Source: Spirochaetota bacterium
Lineage (GTDB): Bacteria; Spirochaetota; GWE2-31-10
Length of the DNA stretch: 64,000 bases
Direction: 5' to 3'
Assembly (NCBI GenBank): GCA_045133795.1
Contig: JBGUUT010000126.1
Location: 7,943-71,942, forward strand
The position numbers and the translations under genes were made by a program. Numbering within the stretch: position 1 is the first letter of the stretch; the number at the start of each line of letters is the position of its first letter. The notes under the pieces are model-generated. The model saw only the letters and a program-made list of their open reading frames with translations. It was not told where the DNA came from and searched no databases. This document shows, piece after piece, positions 1 to 26,558 of the stretch.

Positions 1-874
1 TTCCGCCACCGGGACCGATGTCTCCGATTTTCAAAGTCTTTTTTAATTCTTCCATAATAGGTGTATAAAGAGCATCAACTATATCTTTTGTATAAGTTGG
101 TAACAAATCAAAGATATCGTCTATAGAGCCAAACTGTTTTTTTGAGGACGAGAGTACAACCGCAGTCTTCAAGTCAATGACTGTAGAAGAAAGGTACATT
201 CTGCTTCCTAGCTTGATTATTTGTCCTCTTGCTACCATTGTTGCGTTTATGGCATTACCTAAAGCGACTGTCTTTTCTTTATTCGACCAGTCGGATGCTT
301 GAAATTTCATTTCTTTGATTGTCTTATCAAAGTTCGCTCTGTCTACTACATTTACTTTGCCGGTAGAAACAAGTTCTGCAATAAACAGTTCTGTTATTGC
401 ATCTGCTTCTTCACTGTTTACTGCCCCTGCTGTTATATCAAACGTCGAAACTGCGACATAGGGAAGTTGCATTTCTTGAGTTCCTTTAACTTGCGTAATA
501 CTTGTACTGACTGTTTTAGGATGTCTTAATACTCCGTCTTTAGTTCCGAATGAGTTAAATACAAATTCCGGCATTTCAGGATCTTCAAAATACAGACCAT
601 CATTAGGATTATAAAACTTATAATATTCTATTGGTTTTTCCATTACAAAACGATATTCCCATTCACCTTGTGCATTTCTTACCATCGGTTTGCCCGGTTC
701 TTCCCAGTCATTTGTCATTGTTCCGATACAGTTCACGGCTGACATCTTGTTATTTTTATATGTGATGATACACGTCCATTTGCTGTCTTTTTCCTCATAT
801 CTGACTTTTGCATTTACAGCCATTACGGAAAATAACAACATTGTAACTACTAATAATTTGATTAGTTTTCTCAT
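1..874 (-). CDS. Secreted protein, partial (the 3' end runs off the window start). The C-terminal half has a CsgG/LpoB/TolB-N-like periplasmic fold signature.
   Basis: ATG at 874..872 preceded by AAAGGAGA. My hand translation of the minus strand gives MRKLIKLLVVTMLLFSVMAVNAKVRYEEKDSKW..., a Sec signal peptide ending in an AVNA|K cleavage site, and the frame stays open to position 1. The segment VSTFDITAGAVNSEEADAITELFIAELVSTGKVNVVDRANFDKTIKEM..LGNAINATMVARGQIIKLGSRMYLSSTVIDLKT resembles CsgG/LpoB-type domains. It is absent from the ORF track because it is truncated. Confidence 0.45.
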   Translation of the reverse strand, partial: MRKLIKLLVVTMLLFSVMAVNAKVRYEEKDSKWTCIITYKNNKMSAVNCIGTMTNDWEEPGKPMVRNAQGEWEYRFVMEKPIEYYKFYNPNDGLYFEDPEMPEFVFNSFGTKDGVLRHPKTVSTSITQVKGTQEMQLPYVAVSTFDITAGAVNSEEADAITELFIAELVSTGKVNVVDRANFDKTIKEMKFQASDWSNKEKTVALGNAINATMVARGQIIKLGSRMYLSSTVIDLKTAVVLSSSKKQFGSIDDIFDLLPTYTKDIVDALYTPIMEELKKTLKIGDIGPGGG

Positions 875-901
875 TTATTTGTCTCCTTTATTTTTTGATT
901 A

Positions 902-1957
902 TTATATATGGTCTATAGTAAGAACTGTTTTCGATTTTGGACTTCCCCAAATTCTTTCAAATTGAGTTATAAATTGATTCGATATTTCAGGATTTAATTC
1001 AGAATTTATATAAAATACAAATGAATTCCTTGTTACTTCCGTGGCTGTATACAATGCGATATACAAAATGTTGTCACAGCGGATATAGGAAAAATACGGA
1101 ATATCATCATAGTATTTTAAACAGAGAGAAGCTTCTTGTCTGTTCATGGCGTTTTTAAATTCAAGATTATTTGAAAATGTATCTTTTAGTTCTTGATATT
1201 TCTTTTTTGTTTCTGTTGCTTTATCAAAGAAATCTTTTGTATCACCATTTCTGATATACGAAAATCTAGCTTTAACTAAATTTGATTCCGGTGATAACGC
1301 CATTATTCTGATTCTGGCACTTTGTGTATTAAGTAAGTTATTTTTAAAAATATCTAATGCTTCGGTAGATGTTTCACCTGTCATGCTTAAAATATCAATC
1401 TCTGTTGCTCTAGAAAATGCTGTTTTAATTATATCTTGGACTTTTGGGTCTATTCGTCTTCCGAGAAGATGAAGTCCCTTTTTATCTTCTCTGTTAAAAG
1501 CTATATTTTCACAATATTTATTATGTTCATATATTCTAAAAATATGCTCAACACTTTGCCGTATCTCATTTTTTGTTAATTCTATATCTTTTGAAATAGG
1601 ATTCATATTTGGATATGGATATGCAATAACATTCATTGCTCCTATATCAAAAGGAATCGAATCCTTAGAATTACCTGCTCTCAAAATAATACAAGGTTTA
1701 CCAGTCATGTGGCGGATTCCTAATTCATAAAAAACATTAGGATTTAAATCTGTAATGTCACATACAACTAAATCGGCTTCTTTAAGATTATGTACTATAT
1801 CAGTTGTAATGATATTTCGAGGAATATCAATTGGTAATAAAATATTGAAGTCATCTCCCAGAGCAGGAGTAAGTATATTATCTTGAACATATCTAGAACG
1901 TTTTCGTTCGGGCGAATCCGCTTCTTTCAATGTACAAATAAAAAACGCTGTTTTCAT
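902..1957 (-). CDS. Protein with an N-terminal nucleoside 2-deoxyribosyltransferase-like (SLOG/Rossmannoid) domain and an uncharacterised roughly 220-aa C-terminal domain
   Basis: 351-aa ORF with RBS AAAGGAG. The N-terminus MKTAFFICTL...EADLVVCDITDLNPNVFYELGIRHMTGKPCIIL matches the NDT/SLOG pattern (buried beta-strand start, D-x-x-D, NPNV-x-YELG with the Glu, GKP). The C-terminal region matches nothing I recognise. Confidence 0.55.
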   Translation of the reverse strand: MKTAFFICTLKEADSPERKRSRYVQDNILTPALGDDFNILLPIDIPRNIITTDIVHNLKEADLVVCDITDLNPNVFYELGIRHMTGKPCIILRAGNSKDSIPFDIGAMNVIAYPYPNMNPISKDIELTKNEIRQSVEHIFRIYEHNKYCENIAFNREDKKGLHLLGRRIDPKVQDIIKTAFSRATEIDILSMTGETSTEALDIFKNNLLNTQSARIRIMALSPESNLVKARFSYIRNGDTKDFFDKATETKKKYQELKDTFSNNLEFKNAMNRQEASLCLKYYDDIPYFSYIRCDNILYIALYTATEVTRNSFVFYINSELNPEISNQFITQFERIWGSPKSKTVLTIDHI

Positions 1958-2126
1958 TCTTATTTCTCCTTTATGTTTTGATTATTTTTACTTTCCATTC
2001 CGGAAAGTTTTTTTCTTTTGACCGGGAGTTCGACTTAGCTTTTTGCCGTTTTTTCCTGATGGGAAAAACTTCGTTCGTTCGCAATGCGAACTCACCTTAG
2101 CTCACGTTCGTCACTCCACGAGAACA

Positions 2127-2227
2127 CCTCTCATAACTGCATGAGAAATGCTCTCATAGCATTATGAGAATCTCTCTCATGCCGTTATGAGAACGTCTTC
2201 ACTCGTACTATGAGAGCCCCTCTCATG
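2127..2227. repeat. Tandem array of four imperfect 20-25 bp palindromic units (CTCTCATA-N5-7-TATGAGA). It may be operator-like and lies in the 5' region of the 902..1957 gene.
   Basis: Read directly: cctctcataactgcatgagaa, gctctcatagcattatgagaa, tctctcatgccgttatgagaa, then the inverted-orientation unit tatgagagcccctctcatgc. Additional dyads lie just upstream: GTTCGCA|TGCGAAC at about 2078-2092 and GTTTTTCC-tgat-GGAAAAAC at about 2049-2070. Confidence 0.6.
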
Positions 2228-2228
2228 C

Positions 2229-2963
2229 TTAATCATCGATTGCGTTACAAGCGTAGTTGTAAGTAATCTCACGTATCGAAGCGAGATTTGCTCCGCCGCT
2301 GTAGTTCGTTTTGATTTTCACGGTTACGGCTCCGGCAGGTACTGTCGACGGTACACGTGCGATTATTTGGCTCGGTTTGTTTACTGTCAGTCGGCGTGTT
2401 ACTCTGTGTTCTGCTCCCGTAGAGTCCACGATAAAGATTCCTTGATTTTGGTCGGCTTCATCGGTGATTTTGATTTTTTCGCCGTCGATTACGATGTCGT
2501 CGCCGATTGTGATTGTGCCGTCTTTGAGTCCTGTGGCACCGTCAGTAATCGCCGTGATTCGTGCAGAGGCTGATGTAGCTCCCATTACTTTCACAGATAT
2601 TCCGTCAAGTGTGCTTCGTAAATCTGCTGTCGGTACAAGGTCTACCGTGCGTTTGTGAGTAGCTGGGTCGAAGCTCGCTGCTTCATTTTCCCAAACTCCG
2701 CTTACTCTCGGCGTGATTTGCACTAAGCCGTCACGGAAACTTGAGCATTCTTGGATAAATGCTTTTACTGCATTGTCACGCAGGTTAAGAATATTGAGGA
2801 TTGTGTCCTTGCGGTATTCGCTTCGTTCGCTGACGATTCTTTCCGCTACGTCTTCGTTTGTCAATGTAGCACCGTTAAGGTGAACATCGGCGATACAGTC
2901 TTTGTCATTGTCTTTTGTGAGTGCGTTCGGTCGTAAGTAGACCTGCCATTGGTTGTTTGCCAT
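2229..2963 (-). CDS. Bacteroidetes-type HU-family DNA-binding protein (HU-HIG N-terminal domain plus DUF4469/Ig-like C-terminal domain)
   Basis: 244-aa ORF with RBS AAAGGAG. The N-terminus MANNQWQVYLRPNALTKDNDKDCIADVHLNGATLTNEDVAERIV follows the HU-HIG pattern (basic start, N-x-LT-x-D, Y/C-x-A-x-V) and FDPATHKRTVDLVPTADLR follows the DUF4469-like pattern. Local GC is clearly higher (about 48%) than the flanks (about 33%). Confidence 0.55.
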   Translation of the reverse strand: MANNQWQVYLRPNALTKDNDKDCIADVHLNGATLTNEDVAERIVSERSEYRKDTILNILNLRDNAVKAFIQECSSFRDGLVQITPRVSGVWENEAASFDPATHKRTVDLVPTADLRSTLDGISVKVMGATSASARITAITDGATGLKDGTITIGDDIVIDGEKIKITDEADQNQGIFIVDSTGAEHRVTRRLTVNKPSQIIARVPSTVPAGAVTVKIKTNYSGGANLASIREITYNYACNAIDD

Positions 2964-3031
2964 AGTAAATACTCCTTTGATTTCTTCTTTCCTTATGTGT
3001 AGTAAAGGCTGGAAGAAAGCAAAGAGAATGT

Positions 3032-3047
3032 AAAAAAAAAAAAAAAA
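3032..3047. repeat. A16 homopolymeric tract (T16 on the minus strand), 69-84 bp upstream of the 2229..2963 gene start
   Basis: 16 consecutive A residues counted in the sequence. Confidence 0.9.
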
Positions 3048-3226
3048 CTGTCAAATTTATTGATAATATATAGGAGTAAAAACATTTTTTTGGGCGTGCA
3101 GTTGGCTTCTTTTCTCCTCTTTGGCTGCCGGCACGCTCTTTTTAGGAAAACGGAAAGGTGAAAGAGGGAAGATGAGAAATGAGAATGAACTCACCGAGAG
3201 GAGCGTCCTTTTCTCTTGGGAGTTAT

Positions 3227-3268
3227 AGAGGGTATTCTCTTTTCATCGCAAAAAAGAGAATACCCTCT
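3227..3268. repeat. Perfect 17-bp-stem hairpin (AGAGGGTATTCTCTTTT / AAAAGAGAATACCCTCT), not followed by a T-run
   Basis: The inverted repeat is read directly and is not a canonical terminator on either strand. Confidence 0.7.
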
Positions 3269-3276
3269 AACTTCTA

Positions 3277-3470
3277 CCAACTTTGAACCAAAGTTGCATT
3301 TTAACGCCGGCTATGCCGGCAAAAAGAGCCTTAAACCTAAGTTGGTTTATAAAACTTTAAACCAAAGTTGCATTTTAACGCCGGCTATGCCGGCAAATAA
3401 AGCTCCAAACCTTGCAAAGTTTTAGAAAAGTTTTGTCCCCAAAACGACCATAACTCGCCGGCTATGCCGG
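3277..3470. repeat. Mosaic direct repeats (about 45-bp unit, present 2.5 times). Each unit carries an AT-rich hairpin (CAACTTTG..CAAAGTTG) and a GC hairpin (GCCGGC-TAT-GCCGGC).
   Basis: aaccaaagttgcattttaacgccggctatgccggcaaa occurs at about 3288 and again at about 3358. cgccggctatgccggcaaaag occurs a third time at about 3447, and the aactttaaacc modules are also repeated. Confidence 0.7.
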
Positions 3471-3518
3471 CAAAAGGAACTTTAAACCCACGTGGTTTGA
3501 AAAGCTTTGAAGAAAGCT

Positions 3519-3920
3519 TTAGTTTTGTTGTTCGCCGTTGTAGTCGTTGATTCCGCCGATTTCGATAATATTTGCATATTTTAAATCAATAAGTTTTTGT
3601 GCTGCAATTTTACTGCGGCGACCGCTTCTGCAATAAACAAAGATTTGTTGTTCTTTATTCGGTAAAATCGTTTCACATGTTCGCTCGCTAATATTATCGT
3701 GCGGAAATAAAACTGCACCCGGAATATGACCGGAAGCAAATTCATCTAAGCTGCGAACATCCAGCAAAATATAATCAGAAGATTCTGACATGATTTTTAA
3801 ACCTTCTTCCATCGAAACGGATTGATAAGTAAGATTTTTTTCAGCTTCTTTTTGATTAATACAGTTGAAAAGGAAAGGAACGCACATAAAAATAATCAAA
3901 TATTTAAAGTAATTTCTCAT
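3519..3920 (-). CDS. Rhodanese-like sulfurtransferase domain protein with a signal peptide
   Basis: Rhodanese active-site loop CRSGRRS, a GHIPGA motif and a hydrophobic N-terminus. Confidence 0.8.
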   Translation of the reverse strand: MRNYFKYLIIFMCVPFLFNCINQKEAEKNLTYQSVSMEEGLKIMSESSDYILLDVRSLDEFASGHIPGAVLFPHDNISERTCETILPNKEQQIFVYCRSGRRSKIAAQKLIDLKYANIIEIGGINDYNGEQQN

Positions 3921-4133
3921 GTTGCAAATGTATAGATGAGATTTTGTAATTTATCAATGATAATCACAACTTATTTTTTTCATGGTAAAAACTTTTTTCA
4001 AAAGTCGACAATTAAGAACTTTTTTTTCTTACCGATAAAAGGAAAAGGGAATTTACATTTTACGTAATTTAAATGTAGATGAGACACAGGAGAGCAATTT
4101 TCTTCTGATATTTTTTGCGGCAATGGGCGGGGT

Positions 4134-6932
4134 ATGTTTTTAAAGAATCTTACTATTAATGGCTTTAAATCGTTTTGTGAAGCATCGGAGATAAAATTTG
4201 ATAAAGGGATTTCGGCAATTGTCGGACCTAACGGTTGCGGTAAATCAAATATTGTAGATGCATTAAAGTGGGTTTTGGGAGAACAAAAAAATCGATCTTT
4301 GCGTGCAAACAATATGACGGATGTTATTTTTAAAGGTACTACCGAAAAAAAAGGTTTGGGACGTGCCGAAGTTCGTTTGACATTGGTAAATGAAAACGGG
4401 TTGTTGCCGTTGGATTTTAATGAAGTAGAAGTTGCTCGTATAATTTATGCAGACGGTGAAAATGAATATTACATCAATAAAGAAAAAGTTCGTTTGAAGG
4501 ATATTCATGAGCTTTTTTTTGATACCGGAGTTGGTAAGTCGGCGTATTCATTTATGGAACAGGGAAAAATCGATATGATTCTTTCCAATAAGCCGGAAGA
4601 CCGTCGTTATATTATCGAAGAAGCTGCCGGAATTACAAAATATAAATCACGAAAACATGAAGCAGAAAATAACCTTAATCGTGCGAATGAAAATATTGTT
4701 CGTGCTCAAGATATTTTTTCTGAGGTTTCCAAACAATACGAATCAATGAAAAAACAAGCTGATAAAGCTCAACGTTATATGGAACTTAAAGACGGCGTGC
4801 GAGATTTGGAAATCGAGCTTGGAATCAACAGACTTATGTTGCAAAAAAATATAAAAGACCGTTTTGCCGGCAAACAGTCAAAAGTCGACGATGAATTAGC
4901 GGCGATTCAGGAAGAAATAGACAGCTTGCAATCTGACGTTTCGGAAAAAATGATTGCGGTTAATAATTTGGAACAGGAAAAAATAGACAGACATCGTGAG
5001 ATAGAAAGAACTGACGGAGAAATCAAAGCTTTGAATGTAAAAAATGCTGCTTTACGTGATAAAGAGGCGACAATTTCCAGTTCATTACGTACCGATGAAG
5101 AAAAGCTCGGTCGATTGGATAAAACGATTGCCGATACTGATGAAGAACTGGCGGCTGTTGATGATGAACGTTTTGATACAGTTTCAAAAATCAGCAGTAT
5201 TGAAAAGGATATTTCTCGTCATAACGAAATGATTTCGCAAATTGACATAGATTTGAAAAAAAATGATGAGCAAATCAAATCATTACACGGTTTGATAAAA
5301 GATTTAGCTGCGGAACAGGCAAGTAAACGAGGTCATTTAAAGGAAATTACAGACGCTTTGATTGTAAAGATTGAAGAGTCGCTAAATGTTTTTGATATGA
5401 ATTCTCGTGAAATTATGACGCTAAAGGAAAGTGTCGGCCATGATATTCCGAGAGTACGTGAAGAATTCAGAACTCGTCGTCAATTTTTGGAAGATGTTTT
5501 GAAGATTAGAAATATTCCGTCAGACAGCAGTGCGTTTTTTCAGCAGTTGGAAGATTTCGGAAAACATTTGCAAGATTTGGAAGAAAAACTCGGACACGCC
5601 GGCGAAAATGTAAATAAGTATGTGAAAGCGACTGAAATCTTTATGAATGATATTTTCAGCCCGGAAGGTATTATCCAGAGAAAACGTAAGACAGAACAGG
5701 AAATCGCAGAGTACGATAAACGTATGCATAATTACAGAATTGAAATTGAGAATTTGGAACGAAATTCTGAAACTAAAGAAGAGCAAAAGGAAAATTACAG
5801 AAAGCTTGTGGAAGAAGCAAAAGTAATTTATTCGTCGTTATTGGAAAAACAAAAATCTTTTGACCGTGAAATACAGCGTATTACAAAGATTAAAAATGAA
5901 TATATTGCACAGAAATCGGAAATTGAACGAACAATAAAATCTCGTAACGAAGAGCTTGAAGAAGTTCAATATGAAATTGACGAACTTGACGGTTTGTTGA
6001 GAACCGAACGCAACAAGAAAAAGAAGATAGAAGAACGTATTGAAGAATTGGACAATTTGATTCAATCGGAAAGTGAAAAGATGTCTCAACAGCAGTTGAG
6101 AATGCGTAATATAAACGAGTCTTTCTTAAAAAAGAAAGCGGAAATCGAAGAATTGAAGCTCAAACTTGCGGAAGTAGATACGACAATTAGCGAGATTTAT
6201 CGAAATGCGTACGACAATCTTTCCATTAACTTAAAGGAATATGAGAATTCCGAAAAATATAACACCGGGCGAGAAGCTTCCGTTATCCGAGAAACTCTTT
6301 CCGGAATAAAAAATGACATGATGTCATTGGGGCAAGTAAATATGGCGGCAATGCAGGAATGCGAATCGTTGAAAGAACGTTATGATTTACTTATGTCACA
6401 ATTAGAAGATTTGCAAAAAGGTAAAGATGATTTGCTTACTATAATAAATGAGCTTAACGGAAAGTCTCAAGAGATGTTTGAAAAAACTTATGTGGAAATC
6501 AGAAAGAATTTTCAGATGATTTTCTCTAAGTTATTTAACGGCGGAAAGGCTGATATTTTACTTACGGAACCGGAAAATCTTCTTGAAACCGGTATTGATG
6601 TAGAAGTGCAGCCGCCGGGACAGACTCGAAAAAGTATTACGCTTCTTTCCGGAGGACAGCGAACAATGACGGCAATTGCGTTGATGTTTGCTACTTTTAT
6701 GGTAAAACCGTCGCCGTTTTGTTTGCTGGATGAAATTGACGCAGCGTTGGACGAAGCTAATGTTACTCGTTTTATAGAGTTGGTTCAGGATTTTAAAGAC
6801 CAAAGCCAGTTTGTAATGATTACGCATAATAAAAAAACTATGTCTGCCGCAAATGTAATGTACGGTGTAACTCAAGAAACTATGGGGGTATCGAAAATTG
6901 TTTCTGCAAAATTTATTGAAAAAATTCTCTGA
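4134..6932 (+). CDS. smc: Chromosome segregation protein SMC (short form, 932 aa)
   Basis: The N-terminus FKSF...GPNGCGKSNIVDALKWVLGEQ and the C-terminus LSGGQRTMTAIAL...LLDEIDAALD are SMC head motifs, joined by a long coiled-coil middle. Confidence 0.9.
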   Translation: MFLKNLTINGFKSFCEASEIKFDKGISAIVGPNGCGKSNIVDALKWVLGEQKNRSLRANNMTDVIFKGTTEKKGLGRAEVRLTLVNENGLLPLDFNEVEVARIIYADGENEYYINKEKVRLKDIHELFFDTGVGKSAYSFMEQGKIDMILSNKPEDRRYIIEEAAGITKYKSRKHEAENNLNRANENIVRAQDIFSEVSKQYESMKKQADKAQRYMELKDGVRDLEIELGINRLMLQKNIKDRFAGKQSKVDDELAAIQEEIDSLQSDVSEKMIAVNNLEQEKIDRHREIERTDGEIKALNVKNAALRDKEATISSSLRTDEEKLGRLDKTIADTDEELAAVDDERFDTVSKISSIEKDISRHNEMISQIDIDLKKNDEQIKSLHGLIKDLAAEQASKRGHLKEITDALIVKIEESLNVFDMNSREIMTLKESVGHDIPRVREEFRTRRQFLEDVLKIRNIPSDSSAFFQQLEDFGKHLQDLEEKLGHAGENVNKYVKATEIFMNDIFSPEGIIQRKRKTEQEIAEYDKRMHNYRIEIENLERNSETKEEQKENYRKLVEEAKVIYSSLLEKQKSFDREIQRITKIKNEYIAQKSEIERTIKSRNEELEEVQYEIDELDGLLRTERNKKKKIEERIEELDNLIQSESEKMSQQQLRMRNINESFLKKKAEIEELKLKLAEVDTTISEIYRNAYDNLSINLKEYENSEKYNTGREASVIRETLSGIKNDMMSLGQVNMAAMQECESLKERYDLLMSQLEDLQKGKDDLLTIINELNGKSQEMFEKTYVEIRKNFQMIFSKLFNGGKADILLTEPENLLETGIDVEVQPPGQTRKSITLLSGGQRTMTAIALMFATFMVKPSPFCLLDEIDAALDEANVTRFIELVQDFKDQSQFVMITHNKKTMSAANVMYGVTQETMGVSKIVSAKFIEKIL

Positions 6933-7446: not shown

Positions 7447-9716
7447 TGAAAAGATTAGGCGGGATAATCACTGTTTTACTTGTCGTTTTTTGTACGGGAG
7501 CAGTGATTTCTTGTGCCGGTACAAAAAATGCAATAGTAAAAGACTCAAACAAAGAAAATAACACATCAAAAAAATCAGCGGAAAATCAGGCGGAATCTTT
7601 ATCAAATCCGCTTGAGGAATCTAACCAAGTCGATAATACGACCGACTCTGTGGAAAATGACGAATTAACACAAGGTTTAAATCAGACTGAAAATGTACAA
7701 CCGGAAGCTTTTTTGGAAACAGAAAGTCTTACAGCACAACTGTTTGATGTTCCGGGAGTTTTGTTTCAGGAAGAGATTGCTGAGGAAGAATCAGAAATCG
7801 AAGCTGCGATTAATCAAGAAGAAATTGCACATAGCGAAAATATTTCCGGTAACGGCGGAAGCGTACTTTTTACATTAAAAAGAGCTGAAGAAATTAAAAA
7901 CGGTGAATCTGTAGAAACAGAAATTACTGAAGCTGATATTTCTAACGTAGAGCGACCGACAATGACTGTTTTAGAAGAACGTTTGCTCGGTTATAACGGA
8001 AAGTCAGTTTTTAATAATGAAGTGGTAACAGCTGAACCTTCTGTGTCTACTTTTGAAAATTATGAAACTGAACTTGCGGTTTTACCGGCAATTTCTGTTG
8101 AGCCGATTAAATCGGAAGCAACTATTCAGGAAAATGCGTATTTAGCACAGATTATTTCATTACCTAAAATTGCGGAAGAGACTTTGGGCGAAATTGCAAA
8201 AGAAGAAAAATTGTCAGATGAAGAAATTGTTGCAGATATTGAAATTGCAGAAGTTTCAGATGATGAAAATATGTTGTTGTCTGAGCCTAAACCTTTAGAA
8301 ATTGCGTTGGGAAATTCTGTGACTCCTTTCGGATTGCCGGGAAGTTTTCTTTCTCCGCTTGCCAATCCGGATACTGTAGTAAAAGCAATGAATGACAAAA
8401 CGGAAAATGCAGAAACAGAACAAGCTGTTGAGGAAAAAGTAATTTCTGATGTTGTCGAAATGAAAGCTTCTAAGAAAGAAGAAAATCCTGTTGAAATAAA
8501 AAAAGATGTTAAAACTCAACAGTATGTTGAAATTCAACAAAAACCGATTTTATCGACAGAATCTGTTCCGGAAGTTGCATTTGCCGCAAAAAAAACGGAA
8601 GAACAGAATGTTGCTTTAAATGAGATACTTTCTGTGAATAAAATAGAAATGCCTGCTGCGGAAAATAAAGCAGTTTCTGCGAAAAAAGCTTTTCCGGAAA
8701 TGAAAGTTTCGGTAGTTTATCCGCAAGTCGGAGAGCCGGAAGAACTTGAAGAAGTTGAAGATTTTGAAATGAAACCGGATTTTGTTTATCCGCAAGAAAA
8801 AATTTCAGGATTGGAAAATCAGGAAACAATTATCAGAATGCAAGGTGACGGTTGGCGAATAGATTCAATGAATCATAATGCAATGAAGCTTTTGGAACGA
8901 AAAAATAATAGAGACGGTAATACGACTTTCAGAATAAAGAACGGTAATGCCGGGACTGAACAGATTAAATTTACTCGCTATAATGAAGATGAAAATCGTC
9001 ATGAAATTCGTGTTTATTCCGTTGATATAAAACCGGTTTTATTAACTGCAGAAAATAATAAAAAGAATGCTCCTAAAGCAAAAAAGGCAAGTAAATCAAA
9101 AGGAATCGATGATTACAGAAAAACTCTTGCAGACCATTTATTTGCGGATGAAAATTTTGCACAGGCTTCTGTATATTATAAGAAGTTGATAGACGAAAAT
9201 ATTGTAGACAGTGAACTTTTGTATAAGGCTGCTCATTCAATGAAAGAAGCCGGAAATACAAAAAATGCGATGGAATATTATCAAAAGAATTTGGCAGAAG
9301 AAGGGAATCCTTTTTATGATGATGCGATTATCGAATATATTCATCTGTTGAAAGAACAAAAAGAGTTTGATAAGGCGATAAATGTTGTTTATGAACGCGG
9401 TTTATCTAAAAGTGTAAGTGAAGATTGTACTCAAAAATTGTACAGAACATTGGGTGATTTATTTTTTAATGTCAAAAATTATACCGAAGCAATCAGAACT
9501 TACAAAACCGTATTAAGTTTGTATCCGGCAGGTAACGGTGAGGATAAAGCAATGTTCTATTTGGCGTATGCTTTGGAATTGCAGGAAAATCCGGAATTTA
9601 AGGAAGCACAACGTTTTTATCGAGAGCTTTTGGATGTTTATCCTGAATCGCAATATGTGAATTTAAGTCGTTCCAGAATAGGTTTTATAGACCGACATTA
9701 TATTAAAGTTAATTAA
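7446..9716 (+). CDS. Lipoprotein with an acidic low-complexity middle region and C-terminal TPR repeats
   Basis: GTG start, a lipobox (VISCAG), and TPR-like helices at the C-terminus (YYKKLIDEN...AMEYYQKNL...). Confidence 0.6.
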   Translation: MKRLGGIITVLLVVFCTGAVISCAGTKNAIVKDSNKENNTSKKSAENQAESLSNPLEESNQVDNTTDSVENDELTQGLNQTENVQPEAFLETESLTAQLFDVPGVLFQEEIAEEESEIEAAINQEEIAHSENISGNGGSVLFTLKRAEEIKNGESVETEITEADISNVERPTMTVLEERLLGYNGKSVFNNEVVTAEPSVSTFENYETELAVLPAISVEPIKSEATIQENAYLAQIISLPKIAEETLGEIAKEEKLSDEEIVADIEIAEVSDDENMLLSEPKPLEIALGNSVTPFGLPGSFLSPLANPDTVVKAMNDKTENAETEQAVEEKVISDVVEMKASKKEENPVEIKKDVKTQQYVEIQQKPILSTESVPEVAFAAKKTEEQNVALNEILSVNKIEMPAAENKAVSAKKAFPEMKVSVVYPQVGEPEELEEVEDFEMKPDFVYPQEKISGLENQETIIRMQGDGWRIDSMNHNAMKLLERKNNRDGNTTFRIKNGNAGTEQIKFTRYNEDENRHEIRVYSVDIKPVLLTAENNKKNAPKAKKASKSKGIDDYRKTLADHLFADENFAQASVYYKKLIDENIVDSELLYKAAHSMKEAGNTKNAMEYYQKNLAEEGNPFYDDAIIEYIHLLKEQKEFDKAINVVYERGLSKSVSEDCTQKLYRTLGDLFFNVKNYTEAIRTYKTVLSLYPAGNGEDKAMFYLAYALELQENPEFKEAQRFYRELLDVYPESQYVNLSRSRIGFIDRHYIKVN

Positions 9717-13208: not shown

Positions 13209-15293
13209 ATGAACGACTTTATGATGGGGCTCAATCCACGCCAAATGGATGCGGTTTTGAGTGAATCTAAACATCTTCTTATCTTAGCCGGTGCTGGTTC
13301 CGGGAAGACTAAAACGATTACGACACGAATCGCACATCTTTTGCAAAATGAAGAAGTACATCCCGGACAGATTTTAGCTTTAACATTTACAAATAAAGCT
13401 GCACGTGAAATGAAAGAGCGTGTTTTTTCATTTATCGGGGAACGTCCCGGTTTGCTGTTGAAAACTTTTCATTCTTTCGGTGCTACTTTTTTACGGCGTT
13501 ATGCAGAATGTGTGGGGCGTAAAGATAACTTTGTAATTTATGACGACCATGATTCGAATCACTTGCTTGATTTGACAGCGGCAAAATACGGTGTTCAAAA
13601 AAGTGATTTAAAAGTTTTGAAGAAATGGGTGAAACGTTATAAGCAAAATTTAGAAGCCGTAACGGAACAACCTGACAATCCTAATTTTCTTGAGATTTAT
13701 GAAGAATATAACAAAGCTTTAATTAATTATAATGCGTTTGATTTCGAAGATTTAATTTTTCAATGTGTAAGAATTCTGGAAAATAATCAAGCAGTCGCAG
13801 ATTATTATCATAATCGTTATTTGCACGTTCTTGTGGATGAATATCAAGATACAAATATGTCGCAGGAGCGTTTTTTGTCATTACTTTGCGGAGATAAAAC
13901 TTCGCTTGTAGTTGTCGGTGATGAAGACCAGTCTATTTATAGATTTCGCGGAGCTGACGTTGAATTGATTCTTAATTTCCCGGAGAAATATCAGGACACT
14001 GAAATTGTGAGACTGGAAGAAAATTATCGTTCTACGGAAAATATTTTGAATGCAGCGAATGCTGTTATTTCTAATAATACTTCACGATTGGGGAAAACTC
14101 TTTTTTCGGCTAAAGGAGCAGGTTCTAAAGTTCGTTTGGCAAAAAATGAGAACGAAAATGAAGAAGGCGATTACATTGCCAACGAGATAAAATCTTGTGG
14201 TTATGATTTGAAAGAAACGGCAGTTTTGGTGCGAATAAATGCTCAAACTCGTGCGATAGAAGAAAGTTTCAGACGAGGGAAAATTCCTTATGTTGTAATC
14301 GGAAGTTTGAGTTTTTACGAACGTGAAGAAATAAAAGACGTTCTTTTGCTGTTACGCTGGTTTTCTAATACTTTTGATGCGTTGGCGTTTTCACGTTTTG
14401 TTAATAAACCTGCACGAGGAATCGGCAAGAAATCTTTGGAAACTTTTTTGGAATTTGCAGATAGCCGATACGGCGGAAATATTTATAATGCGTTGAATAA
14501 TGTTGCAACTAGCGGATTAAAAGGTAAAACTCTTAAAGCGTTACAAGATTTGGCGGCGATTTTCTTTGATTTCGAAAAGCAGTTTTCTACGGGAAGTGTG
14601 CAAGAAGTTTTTGCGGAATATTTGGAAAAACTCGGAGTTATCGAATATTATTCCAATATCGATAAATGTGACGGAACGGACAGAGTTGATAATATAAAAG
14701 AATTTGTTAACGGCTTGGCTGATGTTGAGCCGGGGCTGGAAAATATTACTTCTTTCCTTGAAGAAAACGCTTTGATTAGTCAGAGTGATAAGATAGACGA
14801 TGAGGACACAGTAAAAATAATGACTGTTCATCATGCAAAAGGTTTGGAATTTGAAAATGTTTTTATTTCCGGCTTGGAACAAGATCTTTTTCCTCACGGT
14901 ACATCGTTGATGGAATATTGCGATGATGAAGAAGAACGGCGTTTGTTTTACGTTGCGATTACCAGAGCAAAAAAAGAGCTTTATTTGTGTTATACAAAGT
15001 CACGCTTTTTACACGGACATCGCTGCATGAATCCGCCGTCATCATTTTTGGCGGAGATTCCGAATGAATTGTTGGAGTTGATAAAAAGTAATAAAAGTGA
15101 TACTACATCTGAAAAATTTTCTGAATTTGTCGAAGGTCGTATGGTACGTCATCGTGATTACGGCAGCGGAAGAATTTTGAAAGTTAGAAACGCCGGAAAA
15201 TATTATTTGGCAAGTATAGATTTTTTTGATTATTCACAAGCAGAAGTAATTTTAAATTATGAAGCTAAGAAAATGGAGTTTATTGATGATTAA
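13209..15293 (+). CDS. ATP-dependent DNA helicase, UvrD/PcrA/Rep family
   Basis: LNPRQMDAVL, GAGSGKT, DEYQDT, VGDEDQSIYRFRGA, a TRAK-like region and a C-terminal Tudor-like tail. Confidence 0.85.
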   Translation: MNDFMMGLNPRQMDAVLSESKHLLILAGAGSGKTKTITTRIAHLLQNEEVHPGQILALTFTNKAAREMKERVFSFIGERPGLLLKTFHSFGATFLRRYAECVGRKDNFVIYDDHDSNHLLDLTAAKYGVQKSDLKVLKKWVKRYKQNLEAVTEQPDNPNFLEIYEEYNKALINYNAFDFEDLIFQCVRILENNQAVADYYHNRYLHVLVDEYQDTNMSQERFLSLLCGDKTSLVVVGDEDQSIYRFRGADVELILNFPEKYQDTEIVRLEENYRSTENILNAANAVISNNTSRLGKTLFSAKGAGSKVRLAKNENENEEGDYIANEIKSCGYDLKETAVLVRINAQTRAIEESFRRGKIPYVVIGSLSFYEREEIKDVLLLLRWFSNTFDALAFSRFVNKPARGIGKKSLETFLEFADSRYGGNIYNALNNVATSGLKGKTLKALQDLAAIFFDFEKQFSTGSVQEVFAEYLEKLGVIEYYSNIDKCDGTDRVDNIKEFVNGLADVEPGLENITSFLEENALISQSDKIDDEDTVKIMTVHHAKGLEFENVFISGLEQDLFPHGTSLMEYCDDEEERRLFYVAITRAKKELYLCYTKSRFLHGHRCMNPPSSFLAEIPNELLELIKSNKSDTTSEKFSEFVEGRMVRHRDYGSGRILKVRNAGKYYLASIDFFDYSQAEVILNYEAKKMEFIDD

Positions 15294-24243: not shown

Positions 24244-24291
24244 CATAATTGTAGAAGAACTACCTGAATCAAAAAAATCTTGAGGTAACAA

Positions 24292-26487
24292 ATGGACCAA
24301 TTAAAACAAAACTTAGAACGAATTTTAAAAGTGCGTGATGTCGACCTTGGGCTTTTTATACTTGCAATGCATTCACTTATAGAACGTTGTCTTAGTGAAA
24401 AATACGGTACGGGGAATTATGATTCCGATAACACATTCGGAACTCTGCTAGGCCGTTATATAAATGATTATTATAATACTCACGGGAAGCCGGGATTCCC
24501 ATGTGCTGAAAAAAGAATTTTATCAAATGCCGAATGGAATTTGTTTCAAAGTCTGAAGAAGCTTTATAAAAATCACCATCTTTCTAATGATGTTCGTCAC
24601 AGATTTGACACAAAAAATATAGAAGAAGCTCAGGCGACCGTAAAATGTTTCCTTTCATTCGCAGAAGCGGAAAATTGGAAATTTCATGAATTGTTGAATA
24701 AACTCAAAAGAGAACTGGAAACTTGGGATTCTCACAGTTCATATCAAAGCGAAGAACTTACAAAAGCAATCGCACTGATTAAACAGTTAAAAGCGGAAAA
24801 TGAAAATCTGGCAGAAAAAGTAAATACTTTTGAAGATTTGCAAAATCAGTTGAATGTTTTAACTTCTAAAGAAAATCTATTAAAAACTCAACTTCAGGAA
24901 ACGGAAGCACGTCTTTCAAAAAAAGATGCAAAAGTTGATGAACTCAGAAAAAAGACGCATGACCAAATGATGTCTTTTCAAAACGAAAAGAAAGAAATTT
25001 TGGAACAATTAAAAGAATATGAATCGACAAAAGAATATATTTCTCATTTAGAAAAGGTCGCTTTTTATACAAAAACTCGCCATGATTACGAATCGTCCGT
25101 AACAAAGCTTACAACCGAACAAACAGAAGTTTTGGAACAAATCAAATTGAATAAAGATTATCTTGTAAAAGGTTCTGCCGGAACTGGGAAGTCTTTGGTT
25201 CTTTTAAAAACTTTAGAAAAATCTGTAGAGTCTTTGAAGTCGGACTTAAACTTTGAAACGATAAAAAATCATTTCAGGCTTTTAACATACACAAAAAGTT
25301 TGGTTAAATATAATCAGTATGTCACAAAAATACTGGGAACTGAAATCCCGGAGGAAACAATAACAACGGCGGATTCATTCCTTTTTTCTATGATGAAAAA
25401 ATTCTATCCGGCAAAAGATATTTCCTTTGGTTTTGAAGATTTTTTTGACGCTATTTTTGCTTGTGAAAAATTTTCAGCGAAAGAAGTTTTTACAGAGTGT
25501 CAGGAATTTATTTGGGCAAATTGCATTACAAAAGAAGCGTACATCGAAAAAGTTTGTGACCGTGTAGGTATGAAAAATCCGATGAAAAAGGAAGAGCGAA
25601 TTGTAATGTGGGCAGCTTTGGAAAATGCTGAAAAGCAACTTGAAACATATGATAAATGGCCTCGCAATTTTGCTGCAAAAAAGATAATTGAAGCAATGGA
25701 AGAGGCGATAAAAAATGATAATACTGATTTTCGTGCTGAATATTCGTTTGTGGATGAAGCACAAGATTTACCGCCGGTAATTCTTTCGCTTATAAAAAAA
25801 GCGACAAACAGAGGTGTGTTTCTTGCAGGAGACAGCGACCAGTCGATTTATAGAAAAGGTTTTAATTGGAATAGTTCCGGAATCGATATCAGAGGAAGAA
25901 CAAAAATTCTTAAAACGAATTTTAGAAACACAAATCAAATTCACGATTTTGCGGAAAATTACCGTAGAAAATTTAAGAATATGGATAAAACTTCTGAACC
26001 GACAGCTTTTAGACCTGGCCCGCCGGTGGAACATTCAATCGGCGAAAATACAAATGATTTAATGAATCAAATTGTTCAGCAAGTAAAACTTCTTTTGAAT
26101 GTTTTAAAATATGATGAAGAAAATATTTGTATTATCGCAAATCAAAATCAAAAACTGGAAAAAATCCGAAATCTTTTGGATAAAAAGCTTGGCATAAAAA
26201 GTTTTCAGATAGTGGAGAAAGATTTTGATTTTGCAGAATCAAAAGGAATCAGACTTTGTACAATGCAAAACTGTAAAGGCTTGGATTTCCCTGTTGTTTT
26301 ATTTTTGGCAGACCACAGAATCCAAGGGGCAGAACAACAATCGGTGTTTGATTCGGAAACTTATTATGAACAACAATACAATATGGTTTACGTTTGTCTG
26401 ACACGTGCAATGGAAATGCTTCATATTTTTACCGTAAAAACTTCAGAATTTGCTCCGTTTAAGGATTTGACTTTAGATTCAGAATAA
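24292..26487 (+). CDS. Standalone UvrD-like SF1 helicase protein with an unknown all-alpha N-terminal domain and a coiled-coil linker
   Basis: Helicase motifs read directly: GSAGTGKS (Walker A), FVDEAQDL (motif II), LAGDSDQSIY (III), KTNFRNTNQI (IV), CKGLDFPVV (V) and YVCLTRAME (VI). Residues 1-130 have no recognised motif and residues 130-270 are heptad-rich. Confidence 0.6.
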   Translation: MDQLKQNLERILKVRDVDLGLFILAMHSLIERCLSEKYGTGNYDSDNTFGTLLGRYINDYYNTHGKPGFPCAEKRILSNAEWNLFQSLKKLYKNHHLSNDVRHRFDTKNIEEAQATVKCFLSFAEAENWKFHELLNKLKRELETWDSHSSYQSEELTKAIALIKQLKAENENLAEKVNTFEDLQNQLNVLTSKENLLKTQLQETEARLSKKDAKVDELRKKTHDQMMSFQNEKKEILEQLKEYESTKEYISHLEKVAFYTKTRHDYESSVTKLTTEQTEVLEQIKLNKDYLVKGSAGTGKSLVLLKTLEKSVESLKSDLNFETIKNHFRLLTYTKSLVKYNQYVTKILGTEIPEETITTADSFLFSMMKKFYPAKDISFGFEDFFDAIFACEKFSAKEVFTECQEFIWANCITKEAYIEKVCDRVGMKNPMKKEERIVMWAALENAEKQLETYDKWPRNFAAKKIIEAMEEAIKNDNTDFRAEYSFVDEAQDLPPVILSLIKKATNRGVFLAGDSDQSIYRKGFNWNSSGIDIRGRTKILKTNFRNTNQIHDFAENYRRKFKNMDKTSEPTAFRPGPPVEHSIGENTNDLMNQIVQQVKLLLNVLKYDEENICIIANQNQKLEKIRNLLDKKLGIKSFQIVEKDFDFAESKGIRLCTMQNCKGLDFPVVLFLADHRIQGAEQQSVFDSETYYEQQYNMVYVCLTRAMEMLHIFTVKTSEFAPFKDLTLDSE

Positions 26488-26504: not shown

Positions 26505-26558
26505 TAAAAAAATACCGTGTTTGTTTTTTGGGAGAAAACAAACACGGTATTTTTTTGT
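26505..26558. terminator. Bidirectional Rho-independent terminator
   Basis: 17-bp stem AATACCGTGTTTGTTTT/AAAACAAACACGGTATT flanked by an A-run and a T-run. Confidence 0.75.

Follow-up and report, generated by a model that had tools for sequence, protein, structure and literature searches.

A HEPN-fold domain, a helical stalk and a compact UvrD-like helicase in one polypeptide: a candidate immune protein from a Spirochaetota bacterium

Fusions of HEPN domains to superfamily 1 (SF1)/UvrD helicases in restriction-modification (R-M) contexts have been predicted to be defence RNases, the examples including a DUF4145-UvrD helicase and the giant HEPN-SF1 helicase-Vsr proteins (Anantharaman et al. 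2013, PMC3710099). We have analysed a gene whose product can be compared with these fusions: it lies at positions 24292-26487, on the + strand, of a 64-kb window (the whole stretch of DNA analysed, 64,000 nucleotides of contig JBGUUT010000126.1, assembly GCA_045133795.1, from a Spirochaetota bacterium), and it encodes a 731-aa protein that combines a predicted HEPN-fold domain, a helical stalk and a compact UvrD-like SF1 helicase. The explanation towards which we lean, with modest confidence, is that this protein is a stand-alone, single-polypeptide nucleic-acid-surveillance protein of the immune or abortive-infection type that belongs to an uncharacterised family. On the strength of genomic context, from a small sample of loci, and of predicted structures, it is a credible candidate immune protein.

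That HEPN domains occur fused to SF1/UvrD helicases in defence contexts had already been predicted by comparative genomics in 2013, and the window family shares with those fusions (PMC3710099) an N-terminal HEPN domain followed by an SF1/UvrD helicase, an association with R-M or BREX, and the logic of a DNA-sensing ATPase that would control an RNase. It departs from them in having no significant match to DUF4145 or to any Pfam HEPN family and in carrying N-x-V-R-H instead of R-x4-6-H; the window protein is also much smaller, is the product of a single gene, carries a coiled-coil stalk, and shows no Vsr, transglutaminase or winged helix-turn-helix domain. Distinct to the family are the absence of a match to a described HEPN family, the adjacent Arg-His pair, a stalk joined to a motor without domain 2B, and linkage to RecBCD/AddAB. 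The anticodon nucleases PrrC and RloC couple a DNA- or restriction-sensing NTPase, in RloC by way of a Rad50-like coiled coil, to a HEPN-type RNase that disables translation, and SLFN11 is a DNA-lesion-sensing helicase that triggers an RNase. The nuclease domains of PrrC and RloC are classed as HEPN (PMC3710099). Unlike the window protein they have an ABC/Rad50-type ATPase and a C-terminal HEPN domain, and we found no sequence similarity to it, the likeness being a functional analogy. Eukaryotic Schlafen 11 (a tRNase joined to an SF1 helicase) has a nuclease domain that is not HEPN and homology limited to the generic SF1 core, making it likewise an analogue rather than a member of the family. 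Our search of the accessible literature (HEPN with UvrD/SF1, coiled coil, RecBCD, BREX-embedded genes) found no characterised system with the HEPN-stalk-UvrD architecture.

The full-length AlphaFold model, built on a 22-sequence alignment, is confident (pLDDT 83.4, pTM 0.72) and shows residues 1-126 as five helices and residues 133-271 as helical, with two long helices at 173-207 and 213-241. In this model the N-domain has the HEPN fold, a four-helix up-down bundle with an insert between helices 2 and 3; inserts at this place are typical of HEPN domains (PMC3710099). Helix 19-38 carries E31, an inserted helix and hairpin occupy residues 49-78, helix 79-104 terminates with N99-x-V101-R102-H103, and the last helix is 110-126. 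Among the matches of the N-domain are the Roquin HEPN domain (7.9), Csm6 (7.7), SO_3166 (7.7), YutE (7.6) and AbiA (7.6), with further matches to HI0074, the sacsin HEPN domain, Csx1, MtlR, KNTase/GlnE-type domains, AbiV and Las1. The gene and its parts are as follows.

24292..26487, + strand: complete coding sequence, 731 aa, ATG start, for a predicted HEPN-fold domain, helical stalk and compact UvrD-like SF1 helicase (open reading frame (ORF) list, full-length homologues, AlphaFold model)
24292..24681, + strand: predicted N-terminal HEPN-fold domain, aa 1-130; helices 2-15, 19-38, 49-64 (the insert, with hairpin), 79-104 and 110-126
24370..24396, + strand: helix-2 segment H27-S28-x2-E31-x3-S35 (column counts)
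24586..24600, + strand: variant HEPN signature N99-D-V-R102-H103, with which helix 3 closes at its C-terminus (alignment A1, cluster representatives, model)
24688..25014, + strand: helical stalk, a coiled-coil-like region, aa 133-241 (DSSP of the model, heptad and charge profile, weak SMC coiled-coil, Fez1 and BORCS7 matches)
25021..25140, + strand: conserved pre-helicase helices with YTKTRHDYE (aa 259-267) and the Q-motif LTTEQ (aa 273-277) (alignment A1, motif positions)
25141..25791, + strand: RecA-like domain 1A, aa 284-500 (PF00580, PF13245, invariant columns, secondary structure)
25171-25194, + strand: Walker A, GSAGTGKS, within domain 1A
25405-25731, + strand: conserved helical insertion in the 1B position, aa 372-480, within domain 1A
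25750-25770, + strand: motif II, VDEAQDL, within domain 1A
25792..26484, + strand: RecA-like domain 2A, aa 501-731, with motifs III, IV, V and VI and no 2B insertion

HEPN domains are described as having their motif at the end of helix 3 or the start of the helix 3-4 loop, a polar residue (N/D/H) after the Arg, and a second acidic residue in helix 2, typically within Ex3[K/R] (PMC3710099). In the model of the window protein, N99-x-x-R102-H103 ends helix 79-104 with a polar residue four positions before the His, and the conserved acidic residue of helix 2 is E31, which is invariant in 60/60 sequences; position 35, the last of Ex3[K/R], is K/R in 39/60 sequences and in 19/22 relatives, and S in the window protein. 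The signature N99-D-V-R102-H103 is invariant in alignment A1 (22 relatives, 36-74% identical to the 731-aa protein), and among unselected full-length cluster representatives N-x-[VIL]-R-H is found in 73/82 and R-H is kept in 80/82. A further alignment, A4, was chosen on the N-x-x-R-H motif, and its independent evidence is limited to its other invariant columns, R10, D18 and E31. Judged by the model, the conserved residues of the N-domain sit at HEPN active-site positions.

A reading of this DNA from its letters and ORFs alone, which we call the sequence-only reading, had found no clean R-x4-6-H in this domain, and correctly so: position 98 (H-5, the canonical Arg site) is T, A, S or V in all 60 sequences, and the invariant Arg stands at H-1. 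Since i+4 is one helical turn, R102 would lie on the same helix face as the canonical Arg, one turn further on. Among described HEPN variants, Parep1/8 have lost the R and kept the H (PMC3710099), and CoCoNuT CnuE has a shortened RxH motif. Because the motif is non-canonical, RNase activity of the N-domain is something we infer from its modelled fold. The same reading had given the domain no assignable motif or fold, a view that the HEPN fold of the model overturns. At the level of sequence the N-domain is an orphan: residues 1-270 have no Pfam match, NCBIfam and PDB profile searches gave no significant match to the N-domain, and single members reached DUF4145 (E 0.21) and HEPN_RiboL-PSP (E 0.014) below threshold. 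A recurring OapB match (E 0.09-0.47) was set aside as a chance hit on a VRHxF string.

All the SF1/UvrD motifs quoted in the sequence-only reading are present, namely GSAGTGKS (residues 294-301), VDEAQDL (487-493), GDSDQSIY (513-520), NFRNTNQI (543-550), KGLDFPVVLF (662-671) and YVCLTRAME (700-708), to which TYTKSL (motif Ia, 332-337) and the Q-motif LTTEQ can be added. With its Q-motif and motifs I, Ia, II (DExQD), III, IV, V and VI the protein belongs to the SF1A UvrD/Rep/PcrA-like superfamily (the PF00580 clan), and Pfam places UvrD-helicase (PF00580) at residues 273-521 (E 8e-12, above the gathering score). In the 22 relatives of A1, at 36-74% identity, the key residues of Walker A, of the Q-motif and of motifs Ia to VI do not vary, and the ATPase is therefore under selection. 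Whole-chain Foldseek returns generic SF1 cores, PcrA, UvrD and Rep, at E about 1e-14.

The same reading had the motor lacking both the 1B and the 2B insertions, and this is half right. Domain 2B is missing, since just ~115 residues separate motifs IV and V in domain 2A. Domain 1A, in contrast, holds a helical insertion of ~105 aa (about 372-480) between motifs Ia/Ic and II, which the model puts in the 1B position of UvrD and which is conserved in A1 (E402, Y417, R424, G426, M427, R436 and W440 invariant; F406 and I407 at least 90%). The 140-aa coiled-coil linker of that reading likewise survives in part: the coiled-coil-like portion consists mainly of helices 154-169, 173-207 and 213-241, the latter two probably forming an antiparallel hairpin if the model is a guide to their geometry, whereas residues 244-283 are, by conservation, a helicase N-extension and part of the motor rather than linker, because invariant residues of YTxTRxDYE (Y259, T260, T262 and R263; D265 and E267 at least 90% conserved) are followed by the Q-motif, whose L273 and Q277 are invariant in A1. 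UvrD, PcrA and Rep differ in having 2B and in lacking the extra 270-aa N-terminal region. That the protein is an orthologue of the housekeeping UvrD/PcrA is excluded by the missing 2B, by the lack of a match to UvrD_C (PF13361) in the query, by the lack of synteny, and by a true PcrA/UvrD elsewhere in the window.

Protein searches returned 272 relatives of the protein. Alignments spanning at least 98% of the query were obtained for 61 of them at 56-98% identity (E = 0 to 1e-266), and for dozens of others at 35-50% identity; these numbers put the reality of the ORF far beyond chance. One relative carries a species name, Treponema bryantii, and the genome loci of the family come from rumen and gut Treponema/Treponemataceae metagenome-assembled genomes (MAGs), a source to which the window is thereby traced as well. 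The host GC of family loci ranges from 28 to 66%, pointing to a wide and patchy spread. A hidden Markov model of the N-domain, run exhaustively against 1.84 billion representatives, found 271 clusters at 50% identity (184 at E<=1e-10); nearly all of the best 150 of these 271 either are about 700-760 aa long or are short fragments, and each of the 150 has the domain at its N-terminus. As the profile search yields no other architecture among those best 150 clusters, the N-domain, as far as sequence goes, occurs only in fusion with this helicase. No full-length member was found in IMG/VR viral contigs, where the matches are generic SF1 motif matches, and in a tblastn search of PLSDB plasmids no record spanned 80% or more of the query. 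Two members vary the plan: P0215 (935 aa) has an N-terminal zinc ribbon and a ~180-aa C-terminal extension, and in P0160 (842 aa) both the HEPN insert region and the motor are interrupted by low-complexity inserts rich in Ala, Gly and Pro.

The gene does not keep a constant neighbourhood. None of its window neighbours lies near it in 10 loci of other genomes, and the flanks are not conserved among Treponema genomes; the junction with the upstream HAD gene is kept only by a 98% identical copy. Exact-sequence look-ups of the window protein and its HAD neighbour gave no match, and no empty site was found in a sister strain. Because its flanks are not conserved, the gene is not a syntenic core gene of the genus, the arrangement that the sequence-only reading had named as speaking against defence.

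That reading had also asked whether homologues sit in defence islands, and among about 19 distinct loci some lie beside defence systems (context loci are given here by their L numbers). In L012 (36% identity) BrxA-BrxB-BrxC-PglX (BREX type 1) and AbiEi/AbiEii lie directly downstream, with RtcR upstream; in L029 (38% identity) a 157-aa gene directly downstream is followed by BrxC/DUF6079, a methylase and an AAA_30 helicase; and in L032 (32% identity) the helicase start codon overlaps a type III R-M Res gene by 4 nt, with an AddA-like UvrD-PD-(D/E)xK gene upstream and AAA and subtilase genes downstream. L010, from a Treponemataceae MAG, retains a 44-aa C-terminal remnant of the helicase (8215-8346, 82% identical) downstream of JetC/JetD of Wadjet (31-4521 and 4956-6257; PADLOC E 6e-157 and 1e-119) and of an AAA_14/DUF4143 (PDC-S01) gene, which shows the helicase gene decaying inside a variable, defence-rich region. 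The neighbours in L011, L187 and L024 include YoeB/RelB, PIN/HTH, a MutH-type R-M system, an AbiEii fragment and dynamin-like GTPases.

A second kind of association is with RecBCD and AddAB. The helicase gene follows recC-recB-recD after a 10-nt gap (L015-17, the same as L003) and follows addB-addA after a 4-nt gap (L021-23 and L027), and in L004 the helicase gene, a 203-aa gene and then addB-addA lie on one strand. Between the two addAB loci the AddAB proteins share only 37-40% identity. Among about a dozen Treponema-clade contexts there are thus three different operon arrangements, recCBD once and addAB twice. By a rough estimate a random gene would fall within two genes of a recBCD/addAB operon at ~0.3% per locus, so three cases in about a dozen are very unlikely to have arisen by chance. 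In the recCBD locus a 971-aa protein without a Pfam match is encoded 20 nt downstream of the helicase gene (L015:12226-15141); the other loci have no equivalent.

Helicases with a related core point in the same direction as the defence islands. The closest plasmid-borne cores show ~24% identity over residues about 290-720 and belong to proteins of ~670-705 aa with other N-terminal domains. One of them, WP_104992430.1 (673 aa; L191:3338-5356, on plasmid NZ_CP026518.1 of Deinococcus sp. NW-56), sits between brxC and the BREX methylase gene pglX, with HNH and DarT genes beyond. Like the window protein, it joins a small N-terminal toxin-type domain to a compact ~450-aa UvrD core (24% identity over 291-726); unlike it, its N-domain has the ParE/RelE fold of a ParE toxin and there is no long stalk; it too is uncharacterised, and it has the look of a sister architecture with another toxin head. 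Because related cores carry other N-domains, as with ParE within BREX, the compact UvrD-like core appears from these sequences to be a chassis for interchangeable toxin-type N-domains in immune loci.

Gabija GajB and the candidate C3a187 resemble the window protein in having a compact UvrD-like helicase core in anti-phage use, and C3a187 (NERD+UvrD) is its best PADLOC match (1.7e-18, residues 466-721, profile 303-550). We reject C3a187 as an identity since the match is confined to those residues and the N-domain has the HEPN fold, not NERD. The GajB models give partial and weak matches (4.9e-13), and there is no GajA (an OLD-type ATPase-TOPRIM) beside the gene, its neighbours being HAD and MCP; Gabija (GajA+GajB) is accordingly rejected. 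Strong GajB (1e-96) and RTasHel matches among the 41 window ORFs are single-ORF matches that we attribute to the housekeeping PcrA, the output naming no ORF, and since PcrA is taken to match GajB far better, the GajB matches of the 731-aa protein are generic. Hhe, which we take to be the HEPN-helicase-Vsr single-gene system, is rejected as well, as PADLOC gives no HheA match at E<=1 and nothing, hence no Vsr, follows the helicase end at residue 731. CoCoNuT CnuH/CnuE and HEC-08 were rejected as different from the window protein.

Taken together, the HEPN fold, the conserved motif, the exclusive fusion, the patchy and non-syntenic spread, the adjacency to BREX, R-M, Abi and RecBCD/AddAB genes, and the exchange of N-terminal toxin domains suggest a way in which an immune protein of this kind might work. 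The compact UvrD-like SF1 ATPase/translocase would be the sensor and motor, loading on foreign or aberrant DNA, most likely on free ends or single-stranded DNA, substrates common to RecBCD/AddAB and to the products of restriction. The helical stalk would link the HEPN domain to the motor and would probably also bring about dimerisation, the state in which HEPN RNases generally act. The HEPN domain would be the effector, most likely a metal-independent RNase acting through H103, R102, N99 and E31, whose RNA cleavage could shut off translation or degrade invader transcripts and so lead to an abortive or bacteriostatic response. By analogy, this is the logic proposed for HEPN-helicase fusions in R-M contexts (Anantharaman et al., PMC3710099), and it parallels PrrC/RloC and SLFN11.

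The single-gene defence protein proposed in the sequence-only reading therefore keeps its architecture of effector or sensor, stalk and motor, now with a HEPN fold, with BREX, R-M, AbiE, toxin-antitoxin and Wadjet neighbours in relatives, and with related cores fused to toxins; several observations nevertheless weigh against an immune role. PADLOC-DB 2.0.0, run on the protein and on the 41 window ORFs, calls no system and gives partial helicase-core matches only, so the protein is, as had been said, not placeable in a named family. R-x4-6-H spacing is absent from the N-domain in the 60 sequences, and the domain could be non-catalytic; Pfam gives no significant match for it, to HEPN families or others, whether the whole protein, 21 N-domains or 60 N-domains are searched. 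The GC of the gene (0.33-0.34) and its skews equal those of the surrounding DNA, a native composition. The window neighbours are housekeeping genes, the contexts of L001, L009, L018, L020 and L028 are of the same housekeeping type, and in the window and most Treponema relatives the gene lies outside defence islands. The 61 near-full-length clusters show a family common in rumen and gut Treponema, which could fit a lineage-typical housekeeping accessory, and the context sample, about 19 distinct loci, is small and non-random. Finally, operon linkage to recBCD/addAB in three lineages fits a DNA-end sensor and, equally, a DNA-repair accessory.

This last point leads to the alternative to which we give most thought, that the protein is an accessory helicase of repair or recombination that serves the double-strand-break resection enzymes RecBCD/AddAB, for instance by removing proteins or RNA-DNA hybrids from the broken DNA, with the HEPN domain as a non-catalytic module that binds nucleic acid or a partner and with no immune role. 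The three recCBD/addAB arrangements among about a dozen Treponema-clade contexts, the missing canonical HEPN arginine, the native GC in the window and the wide occurrence in Treponema all suit it. It does not account for the absence of both recBCD and addAB from the 64-kb window, for a gene that has no fixed genomic position and exists as a decayed copy, or for members in other phyla that lie in BREX, R-M and Abi islands and not with repair genes; N, R, H and E, moreover, are strictly conserved where HEPN domains have their catalytic residues, which favours chemistry over binding. Since RecBCD and AddAB themselves have a central part in degrading DNA as a defence against phages, linkage to them does not separate repair from defence. 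We regard an accessory role in repair as unlikely, though it deserves real weight.

A defence role could also be exercised by the motor, which might strip or stall replication or transcription complexes or aid BREX/R-M, while the HEPN domain served as sensor, regulator or dimeriser without RNase activity. Tight juxtaposition of the gene to multi-gene systems would then be natural, as would a spacing other than Rx4-6H, and non-catalytic HEPN domains do exist; yet the conservation of R102-H103, N99 and E31 equals that of the ATPase motifs, and HEPN families that lose catalysis usually lose active-site positions (PMC3710099). The gene often stands by itself and so must be capable of acting without partners, and on related cores there are genuine toxin domains such as ParE, all of which makes a motor-as-effector rather improbable. 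Topology alone would suggest a HelD-like ATPase that remodels RNA polymerase by inserting an N-terminal helical arm into it, for such an arm, a helical insertion in 1A and the lack of 2B are similar in both. HelD, however, scores no better than Rep, Upf1 or SLFN11 (whole-chain Foldseek TM-score 0.36), there is no HelD-specific NCBIfam or Pfam match, the BREX, R-M and RecBCD contexts would be left unexplained, and HelD is not known to have a HEPN-fold domain; we consider this explanation very unlikely.

A more specific version of the immune explanation would make the family a guard of the RecBCD/AddAB pathway, its helicase loading on unprocessed ends when a phage blocks or overwhelms resection, and the stalk dimer then switching on a HEPN RNase with a previously unseen adjacent Arg-His dyad and so aborting infection. 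This would be a bacterial counterpart, by analogy, of the logic of SLFN11, and it would explain both the recCBD/addAB operons in Treponema and the BREX/R-M adjacency elsewhere; as a single detailed scenario we think it quite doubtful. Were the immune explanation in its general form correct, the gene would be an immune module of one gene and only 2.2 kb, often met in spirochaetes of the gut and rumen and with a scattered presence in various phyla, and its N-domain would found a new HEPN family whose shifted catalytic signature, N-x-x-R-H, is missed by motif screens for Rx4-6H, as it was in the sequence-only reading. It would also support the view that toxin domains can be exchanged at the N-terminus of a minimal UvrD-like motor, the chassis, with HEPN in this family and ParE and NERD in relatives, and the recurrent RecBCD/AddAB operon linkage would become a testable hypothesis on the wiring of DNA-end surveillance to translation shut-off in bacteria.

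The immediate surroundings of the gene agree with their earlier description as metabolic flanks with a strong bidirectional terminator. Upstream, on the + strand, are genes for an M32 carboxypeptidase, a PHP phosphoesterase and a Cof-type HAD hydrolase, the last 48 bp from the helicase gene; downstream, on the opposite strand, are an MCP (chemoreceptor) gene and lgt, and no tRNA gene lies within 10 kb of the helicase gene. The standalone 731-aa ORF itself is borne out by its ATG, its ribosome-binding site and its homologues. Two signals frame it.

24282..24285, + strand: Shine-Dalgarno-like GAGG, 6 nt 5' of the ATG (read from the sequence)
26508..26554, both strands: bidirectional intrinsic terminator with a 20-bp stem and T-runs on both strands, common to the helicase gene and the convergent MCP gene (terminator scan, sequence)

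A canonical PcrA/UvrD with full UvrD_C is indeed encoded in the same window at 13209-15293. The 731-aa protein had been called an extra, divergent paralogue of it; divergent it is, but not a close paralogue, for BLASTP between the two finds motif-level similarity only (E 0.006), and because the likeness is of this kind the 731-aa protein is, on sequence grounds, a separate SF1 family rather than a recent paralogue. Elsewhere in the window a 351-aa ORF at the left end (902-1957, - strand) has a weak PADLOC TIR-effector match (E 8e-7), and further PADLOC matches among the window ORFs, not localised, are to mad3 (1.7e-65), DolB (3.6e-32) and PDC-M37B (3.2e-36); these last three are probably matches to housekeeping homologues (an SMC gene lies at 4134-6932).

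Other genes recur around the relatives. A double-AAA ATPase of ~777 aa is found near the gene in L008 (5330-7669), L020 (6420-8753), L187 (13798-16128) and L011 (1-1680), a small sigma-70-like gene in L011 and L187, and an ADP-ribosylglycohydrolase in L001 and L187; these may reflect a shared variable island or an undescribed system. In one Treponema lineage a 582-aa protein with a weakly PcfJ-like C-terminus (E 8e-5) is encoded directly downstream at 82-99% identity (L020:12232-13980, L008:10235-11983, L002:1995-3743), and upstream of the T. bryantii gene a distant relative of it (21% identity; L011:4259-5812) adjoins a PcfJ gene. The 66% GC member (L031, 30% identity) has an upstream gene for an ion-transport and adenylate/guanylate cyclase protein that overlaps the helicase start (L031:40-1533), and a gene for an RNase_H_2-type exonuclease downstream on the opposite strand. 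Among L001, L004, L005, L006, L009, L010, L028 and L031, one neighbouring ORF matches a Card1-type CARF-PD-(D/E)xK nuclease (PADLOC E 2.7e-56; Pfam CARF_Card1 E 3e-41), and two neighbours are PLD/DrmC-like.

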